Assembly: GCA_016207405.1 (NCBI GenBank)
Contig: JACQPQ010000021.1
Coordinates: forward strand, 4,936-68,935
Source of the DNA: Gammaproteobacteria bacterium
Lineage (GTDB): Bacteria > Pseudomonadota > Gammaproteobacteria > JACQPQ01
Direction: 5' to 3'
Length of the DNA stretch: 64,000 nucleotides
Program-made: the position numbers and the translations under genes
Shown: positions 56,793 to 56,954 of the stretch, piece by piece
Layout: each line of letters opens with the position of its first letter
Position numbering within the stretch: the first letter of the stretch is position 1
Notes under the pieces: generated by a model
Databases searched by the model: none
Seen by the model: the letters and a program-made list of their open reading frames with translations, nothing else
What the model was told of the DNA's origin: nothing

Positions 56793-56954
56793 ATGAAACA
56801 CAATTGCTTGATGAACACCAATCCCTATTTAAAAGATCCAAAACAACGAATAAAATTGATTCGCCGTTCTGTTGAAAGTTCATCTGAAATCGAAGGAATT
56901 TATATTAAACTCGGGGAAAAAAGTTCTACTCGAAGAAAAAGAGCTATAGGATAG
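56793..56954 (+). CDS. Candidate FicA/YhfG-like antitoxin (53 aa) carrying an SxxxEG inhibitory motif
   Basis: The product is MKHNCLMNTNPYLKDPKQRIKLIRRSVESSSEIEGIYIKLGEKSSTRRKRAIG. RRSVESSSEIEGIYI resembles YhfG R.NFQQSRRLEGIEI. It is the 3' part of track ORF 56661..56954, convergent to the Fic gene and overlapping it by 11 bp. Confidence 0.4.
   Translation: MKHNCLMNTNPYLKDPKQRIKLIRRSVESSSEIEGIYIKLGEKSSTRRKRAIG

Follow-up and report, generated by a model that had tools for sequence, protein, structure and literature searches.

Does the 53-codon open reading frame that faces the 3' end of a Fic coding region in this stretch of DNA encode a Fic antitoxin, to which family would such an antitoxin belong, and is the convergent arrangement of the two genes peculiar to this genome? 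The question arises from a preliminary description of the stretch (the whole 64,000 nucleotides analysed, called "the window" below), in which the frame was proposed as an antitoxin of the FicA/YhfG or VbhA kind, placed in an unusual architecture that might have come from a local inversion.

The small reading frame and its Fic partner

The pair is made up of the following features, numbered from the first letter of the window:

56778..56786, plus strand: extended -10 element TGTTATAAT, read from the sequence, ending 6 nt before the ATG of the small frame
56793..56954, plus strand: predicted antY-like antitoxin gene, 53 aa, TAG stop, MKHNCLMNTNPYLKDPKQRIKLIRRSVESSSEIEGIYIKLGEKSSTRRKRAIG; without annotation in the public record
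56880..56897, plus strand: codons S30-S-E-I-E34-G35, putative inhibitory motif; S30 and E34 are the sole invariant columns of alignments A2 (58 sequences) and A3 (53 sequences)
56944..56954: 11-bp 3' overlap of the two convergent frames, the small one (plus) and the Fic one (minus)
56944..57555, minus strand: coding region of a class I Fic protein (FicY/FicT-like), truncated at its 5' end; Pfam Fic 1.8e-18, 67.6 bits; PDC-S04 E=3.9e-75
57115..57150, minus strand: Fic catalytic motif HPFREGNGRVAR; H136 to G143, R144 and R147 are invariant in alignment A1

The plain observations of the preliminary description stand: the plus-strand frame with SSEIEG is present at 56793-56954, its residues S30-S-E-I-E34-G35 match [ST]xxxE[GN], and it converges with the Fic frame, with positions 56944-56954 belonging to both. 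The motif alone is weak evidence for a small frame, because it is frequent in the window, whose six-frame translation contains 46 instances of [ST]xxxE[GN], with an expectation of about 0.026 per 53-aa peptide. It is conservation, not the motif, which places the small frame beyond chance. We scored the 1545 six-frame segments of the window with a profile of homologues from other loci, the window sequence being left out; the small frame obtained E=5e-15 and the next-best segment 0.35. Within the family of the small frame, the pairwise dN/dS, computed for 15 pairs, ranges from 0.06 to 0.31 where dS is unsaturated. The value is 0.31 (0.273/0.874) for the window frame against its homologue at locus L005, the closest of the first three loci that were searched, where tblastn finds a 63% identical homologue at the same position.

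Direct searches with the peptide returned next to nothing. As a single sequence it has no Pfam or NCBIfam family at E<=10; phmmer against the PDB gives 2jvw as sole match, at E=0.23, which is noise; a word-indexed protein search yielded no useful match. The exact sequence is missing from a collection of 15 billion proteins, which means that the frame was never annotated. An AF2 model computed with the family alignment has a helix over residues 16-51, with a mean pLDDT of 72.8 (moderate confidence). Judged by its conservation, the small frame is a genuine, unannotated protein gene.

On the opposite strand, the Fic frame read from its ATG spans 56944-57471 and encodes 175 aa, while translation from 57555 gives 203 aa. 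Its relatives are counted in thousands, measure about 214 aa and cover 100% of the 203-aa translation. The catalytic motif HxFx(D/E)GNGRxxR is found in the window Fic, and the Fic family keeps it in the form HPFREGNGRxxR. No conserved internal [ST]xxxE[GN] was seen in 23 members of the Fic family, and the protein is for that reason placed in class I. Its best relatives of solved structure are Fic-1 (8WT0, 8.1e-13), VbhT (1.3e-12) and the Bep proteins. The window Fic also matches the PADLOC model PDLC04839 of PDC-S04 (E=3.9e-75, 250 bits) over model positions 9-203 of 205. PDC-S04 differs from the present pair in being defined as a single-gene candidate defence system, with the convergent small gene outside the model. 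That small gene may be an obligatory partner of Fic proteins of the PDC-S04 type which the model ignores. The neighbours at related loci are heterogeneous (type I R-M subunits, Cas3, HerA, a SNIPE nuclease and HigBA are among them), and so are the upstream neighbours across the loci.

A family of small convergent genes

We searched the contigs of three Fic relatives with the peptide by tblastn, and found a homologous frame just past the Fic stop, on the opposite strand, in all three. The search was then extended to 80 more Fic loci from reference genomes, with an HMM iterated over all six-frame segments; the loci considered number 86, that is, 85 fetched ones and the window. In a database of 5.8 billion clusters the profile matched 3374 clusters, all of about 55-65 aa, free of Pfam domains and named "hypothetical protein". 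An exhaustive HMMER search over 1.84 billion representatives gave 960 matches at E<=1e-3 and 170 at E<=1e-10. The two family sizes refer to different identity levels, 3374 clusters at 90% and 960 at 50%. Among the best 150 of the 960 matches, all of 47-138 aa, there is no fusion of the small protein to Fic. By the measure of sequence comparison, these small proteins form a real, large and uncurated family.

The Ser and the Glu of SxxxE (S30 and E34 in window numbering) are the only columns which never vary. The position after the Glu is occupied by G, T, S or L; it is T in most relatives and G in the window, so that the canonical [GN] position is not a constant of the family. We distinguish two subtypes, A and B, which grade into each other. 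Type A, to which the window peptide belongs, reads M-x-x-K-S-L-x-x-T-N-P-Y-L-x-D-P and then ...V-x-S-S-x-A-I-E-(G or T-G). Type B is devoid of the NPYL segment and reads R-(A/S)-V-A-S-S-T-A-I-E-T-G...I-E-x-x-L...L-A; it occurs in Enterobacterales, Shewanella, Pseudoalteromonas and others. Intermediate proteins, those of L023, L028, L034 and L076 among them, combine an NPYL or NPHL head with a type-B tail. The N-terminal T-N-P-Y-L-x-D-P (window codons 7-16, 56811-56840) is strongly conserved in type A and missing from the AntY-like proteins of type B, from VbhA, from YhfG and from AntF.

The layout is as regular as the motif. The small frame lies downstream of a class I Fic gene and convergent to it at 73 of the 86 loci, the window included, in many phyla; wherever it was found, it is on the strand opposite to Fic and immediately downstream. 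The 3' ends overlap in 57 of the 68 pairs measured, by 4-68 bp, and the median across all 68 is 23 bp. An overlap of 11 bp, as in the window, is also present at L005 and L007. The RefSeq annotation of a Citrobacter plasmid gives the same layout, with a 4-bp overlap between a plus-strand "hypothetical protein" and a minus-strand "Fic family protein". We also observed that the overlap lengths cluster at 4, 29 and 47 bp (68 pairs, L001-L084) and that the longer ones are mostly congruent to 2 modulo 3; hence the relative frame of the two genes in the overlap seems to be conserved. Where the 3' ends overlap, the transcripts of Fic and of the antitoxin must run into each other, and an antisense coupling of the two genes is possible. 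The architecture had been thought an unusual one-off and a local inversion had been offered to explain it. Neither idea survives the count of loci, and the layout was moreover published in 2020 for the pair FicY-AntY. In this system, known but obscure, convergent and overlapping genes are the conserved rule; the layout is neither an inversion nor new.

A second regularity concerns the start of the small gene. Upstream of its ATG in the window there is no Shine-Dalgarno sequence. A TAnnnT hexamer begins between -13 and -11 from the start codon in 26 of the 34 distinct type-A loci, exactly at -12 in 19 of them, and is preceded by the TGn extension in 16 of these 26. TGnTAnnnT separated by 6 nt from the start codon, and not accompanied by a Shine-Dalgarno sequence, is found at L001, L002, L005-L007, L018, L024, L028, L029, L034 and others. 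The genes of type B have a -10 element further upstream and a Shine-Dalgarno sequence. A simple -35/-10 scan misses the extended -10 element of the window, since no -35 is present. The spacing between the -10 element and the ATG suggests that the antitoxin mRNA of type A is leaderless or nearly so.

The known case which resembles this family is that of AntY in Yersinia pseudotuberculosis YPIII, the inhibitor of the class I Fic protein FicY (YPK_0608) (Lu et al. 2020, Front Microbiol 11:2084, PMC7479194). There, antY is a small frame downstream of ficY and convergent to it, the two genes having independent promoters, and AntY blocks the AMPylation of ParE by FicY in vitro in a dose-dependent way (PMC7479194). 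Our literature search for AntY gave no mention beyond this paper. The type-A profile matches all 32 of 32 AntY-like (type-B) sequences at 1e-8 to 1e-18. In the reverse direction, the type-B profile detects L005, the closest relative of the window, at 1.7e-5, and gives the window peptide E=0.69, which is not significant; the homology of the window peptide to AntY is therefore transitive, through its type-A relatives. The small protein of L059 (52 aa, cluster P0155, from Yersinia and other Enterobacterales) has S22-T-A-I-E-T27, at exactly the positions reported for AntY, and the Fic protein of the same locus is 42% identical to that of the window. The window itself has what characterises the AntY type, namely a stand-alone protein of 53 aa with S30...E34 whose gene is downstream of a class I fic gene and convergent to it. 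Membership of the small frame in the AntY family is thus probable, by way of this transitive link. As a side remark, the primers labelled FicY/YPK_0608 in the supplement of PMC7479194 encode MTKKTVH... and ...VGLAR*, and match the ends of the small gene at L059 and at L087, not those of the Fic gene; the FicY label on this primer pair is probably a slip in the table.

The antitoxin family has no Pfam or NCBIfam model, and its members are labelled "hypothetical" or missed altogether, as in the window. Because it is uncurated, Fic genes of the window type are taken for lone toxins or for candidate defence systems of a single gene (PDC-S04), and a family model would correct many annotations. Since the family follows this layout as a rule, and a publication of 2020 describes it for one pair, the value of the present analysis lies mainly in annotation and in leads. 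The combination of a leaderless-type promoter with a 3' overlap offers one such lead, as a handle on the balance between toxin and antitoxin in the absence of a shared operon.

The truncated Fic gene and its tRNA-flanked islet

Three further features delimit the pair:

56679..56706: attL-like left copy of a 28-bp direct repeat, formed by a displaced tRNA-Arg 3' end and 9 nt; matches 57558-57585 at 27 of 28 nt
57558..57585: attR-like right copy of the 28-bp repeat, formed by the true tRNA-Arg 3' end and the 9 nt downstream
57567..57643, minus strand: tRNA-Arg(ACG), found by ARAGORN (Rfam tRNA 65.4 bits), directly upstream of the Fic remnant and co-directional with it

The 851-bp islet between the repeats holds the small gene and the Fic remnant only. 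A tRNA-Ser gene and the tRNA-Arg gene lie directly upstream of the Fic remnant on the same strand. Homology to the Fic family extends 28 codons upstream of the ATG at 57471, up to 57555, and an in-frame TAA follows at 57556-57558. The first 9-11 codons or so of the family are lacking; the consensus N-terminus MKKxGRYDV is missing in the alignment. Between the TAA and 57471 there is no in-frame ATG, GTG or TTG, and the first canonical start corresponds to a conserved internal methionine, Met29. A complete Fic coding sequence with its start codon is thus absent from the window, and the point of truncation coincides with the boundary of the 28-bp repeat. In this genome the toxin is probably inactive. 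The truncation being what it is, the antitoxin may have nothing to inhibit here. As the 28 codons upstream of the Fic ATG are open and conserved, the truncation may be recent, or a start may exist which we do not recognise.

A compact unit made of integrase, Fic and antitoxin was seen at L087 (Citrobacter freundii plasmid p6_A, 2501-4591) and at L059 (1608-3743): a gene for a site-specific integrase directly precedes Fic on its strand, at a distance of 4 nt in L087, and the convergent small gene comes after Fic. In Yokenella, as on the Citrobacter plasmid, an integrase gene has this place directly upstream of Fic, which is the part that the window lacks. Such an integrase recurs solely at L059 and L055, and we rejected it as a family-wide feature on that account. 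The Citrobacter plasmid, with its order of integrase, Fic and convergent small gene, fits the loss of an integrase-proximal segment in the window. The simplest reading of the islet is that of an integrated element which lost its integrase-proximal part together with the 5' end of Fic. Neither an unoccupied tRNA-Arg site nor a more complete island there was found: contigs with an identical ErpA gave the same strain only, and a scan of metagenomes with the attR sequence gave no match. We had also considered that, if the islet were circular, reading across the repeat might restore the missing Fic N-terminus. Translation by hand led us to reject this: the reverse complement of the repeat reads NPSGRARLA and then a stop, and no peptide of the RYD type is found on its far side. 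Elsewhere in the window, and unrelated to the Fic pair, a frame of 641 aa (53095-55020, plus strand) has a Cys-rich segment, ECTSSTQCSSGYCYPGP, duplicated near its N-terminus.

Proposed mode of action, alternatives and known systems

The reading which we prefer, and which as a whole we consider quite probable, is that of an AntY-type antitoxin of a class I Fic protein, docking through SxxxE and encoded by a convergent gene with its own promoter, in what is now a remnant cassette. The antitoxin would be a mostly helical protein of about 50-60 aa whose Ser30 and Glu34 dock onto the second arginine of HPFxEGNGRxxR, here R147 in the numbering of the 203-aa translation, a residue which is invariant in the Fic family. 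Docking would force ATP into a non-productive pose and so block AMPylation, probably of GyrB/ParE. This mode, deduced by analogy with the structures of Fic-1-AntF and VbhT-VbhA, would be like that of VbhA, YhfG and AntF, in a separate sequence family. The antitoxin gene would use its own promoter, which in the subtype of the window would be the extended -10 element 6 nt before the ATG and would give a leaderless mRNA. At the tRNA-proximal junction, Fic would have lost its start codon and its promoter along with its first 9-11 codons or so, the antitoxin gene and its promoter staying intact. That the small protein is a trans-acting Fic inhibitor presenting an SxxxE(G) helix, the role given to it in the preliminary description, is very probably right, in view of the class I Fic partner, of the invariance of S30 and E34, and of the inhibition by AntY in vitro (PMC7479194).

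The family name given to it there is another matter. If the gene were a FicA/YhfG/VbhA antitoxin gene turned round by a local inversion in this genome, the [ST]xxxE[GN] motif common to both would be accounted for, and a local hhalign alignment with VbhA indeed sets the S and the E in register. The hhalign probability is nevertheless 0.55% for VbhA and below 0.4% for YhfG, the two sequences having been verified against PDB chains 3shg_B and 5jff_B, respectively. None of the 58 relatives, each searched against Pfam, matches VbhA or YhfG at E<=1, and their profile finds no PDB chain at E<=10; with the peptide itself, there is no Pfam, NCBIfam or PDB match on which a place in the FicA/YhfG/VbhA family could be founded, nor any statistical support, in the profile, PDB and hhalign comparisons, for a resemblance to the YhfG/VbhA core beyond the motif. 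YhfG and VbhA also fail to detect each other by phmmer. The canonical ficA gene lies upstream of ficT in one operon (PMC5033356, PMC13327609), unlike the small gene of the window, which is downstream and convergent; and, convergence being found at 73 of 86 loci across phyla, no inversion is needed. We hold this origin to be extremely unlikely; the label "FicA/YhfG-like" is very probably right as to function and wrong as to family. Scarcely more credible, and still very improbable, is the view that the frame is untranslated and the peptide incidental, an antisense RNA or a 3'-UTR controlling fic as in a type I system. The conserved convergent overlap, together with the own -10 elements of most antitoxin genes, would suit it, since sense and antisense transcripts must overlap. 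The conservation is nonetheless at the level of amino acids (see the dN/dS values above), the invariant S and E lie outside the overlap, no Rfam family is present in the islet, and in the case of AntY it is the protein that inhibits FicY in vitro (PMC7479194). A layer of control by RNA could exist besides the protein.

Two other alternatives accept the antitoxin and bear on what the pair does. The window pair might still be a working toxin-antitoxin module, in which read-through from the tRNA-Ser and tRNA-Arg genes would yield a toxic Fic beginning at the 57471 ATG or at a start which we do not recognise. These genes immediately precede the Fic frame on its strand, and no terminator is called in between; the frame stays open all the way from 57555 to the stop; and the residues invariant in the family are all present, also in the 28 codons that precede the ATG. 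Against this, no in-frame ATG, GTG or TTG precedes 57471 after the TAA, and the ATG there has no Shine-Dalgarno sequence; a product begun at M29 would be short of some 38 N-terminal residues which the family conserves, and in Fic-1 the antitoxin contacts helix alpha1 (PMC13327609). We think a working module unlikely and retain the remnant cassette. It is somewhat less doubtful, though we put it forward only tentatively, that the antitoxin is more than an inhibitor and that its glutamate may turn Fic into a deAMPylase restoring the target, by analogy with Fic-1-AntF, where E28 of AntF is required for deAMPylation by the complex (PMC13327609). The equivalent Glu is invariant in the family of small proteins, but the point would be moot in the window if its Fic is dead.

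Beyond the preferred reading, one may speculate, with rather low confidence, that type A (NPYL) is a kind of Fic antitoxin which is very widespread and so far undescribed, translated from a leaderless mRNA under an extended -10 element, and whose transcript collides with that of the toxin. The overlap and the leaderless translation would then set the ratio of toxin to antitoxin, and TNPYLxDP would be a second contact or a degron. If this were true, a Fic protein of PDC-S04 could be released when, for example, a phage or a stress shuts down host transcription, and TNPYLxDP would be a contact or a degron that AntY, VbhA and YhfG lack.

We finally compare the pair of the window with the systems known so far. 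In VbhT-VbhA of Bartonella schoenbuchensis (PDB 3SHG) and in EcFicT-YhfG/EcFicA of E. coli (PDB 5JFF), a Fic of class I likewise receives [ST]xxxE[GN] in trans from a small helical protein; these systems differ by an antitoxin gene placed upstream in the same operon and by a protein with no detectable sequence relation to the window peptide. Sofic-AS1 of E. coli H397 (PMC12249575) can be likened to the pair by its description, in which a 47-aa protein encoded downstream of Fic counters its toxicity, whereas Sofic is a class II Fic of about 370 aa with its own inhibitory helix. Fic-1-AntF of Pseudomonas bijieensis 2P24 (PDB 8WT0) contains the best PDB match of the window Fic. Residues S24 and E28 of AntF bind the arginine that ends the Fic motif, R146 of Fic-1, and E28G abolishes inhibition (PMC13327609); in the window pair, the corresponding S, E and R are conserved. 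By contrast, antF is immediately upstream of its toxin gene and co-transcribed with it, and the deAMPylase role is known from Fic-1-AntF alone.

The closest system is FicY-AntY, with which the window shares a class I Fic and a predicted inhibitor encoded in a small, downstream, convergent frame having its own promoter and an S-x-x-x-E motif. The window peptide is of the divergent type A, with TNPYLxDP at its N-terminus and E-G where AntY has E-T-G, and is devoid of the C-terminal "IExxL...LA" tail; its gene has a leaderless-type promoter where the AntY type has a -10 element plus a Shine-Dalgarno sequence, and its toxin is truncated. The gene of the window is most probably a new, divergent member of the AntY type, in an architecture which was itself reported in 2020 for one pair.
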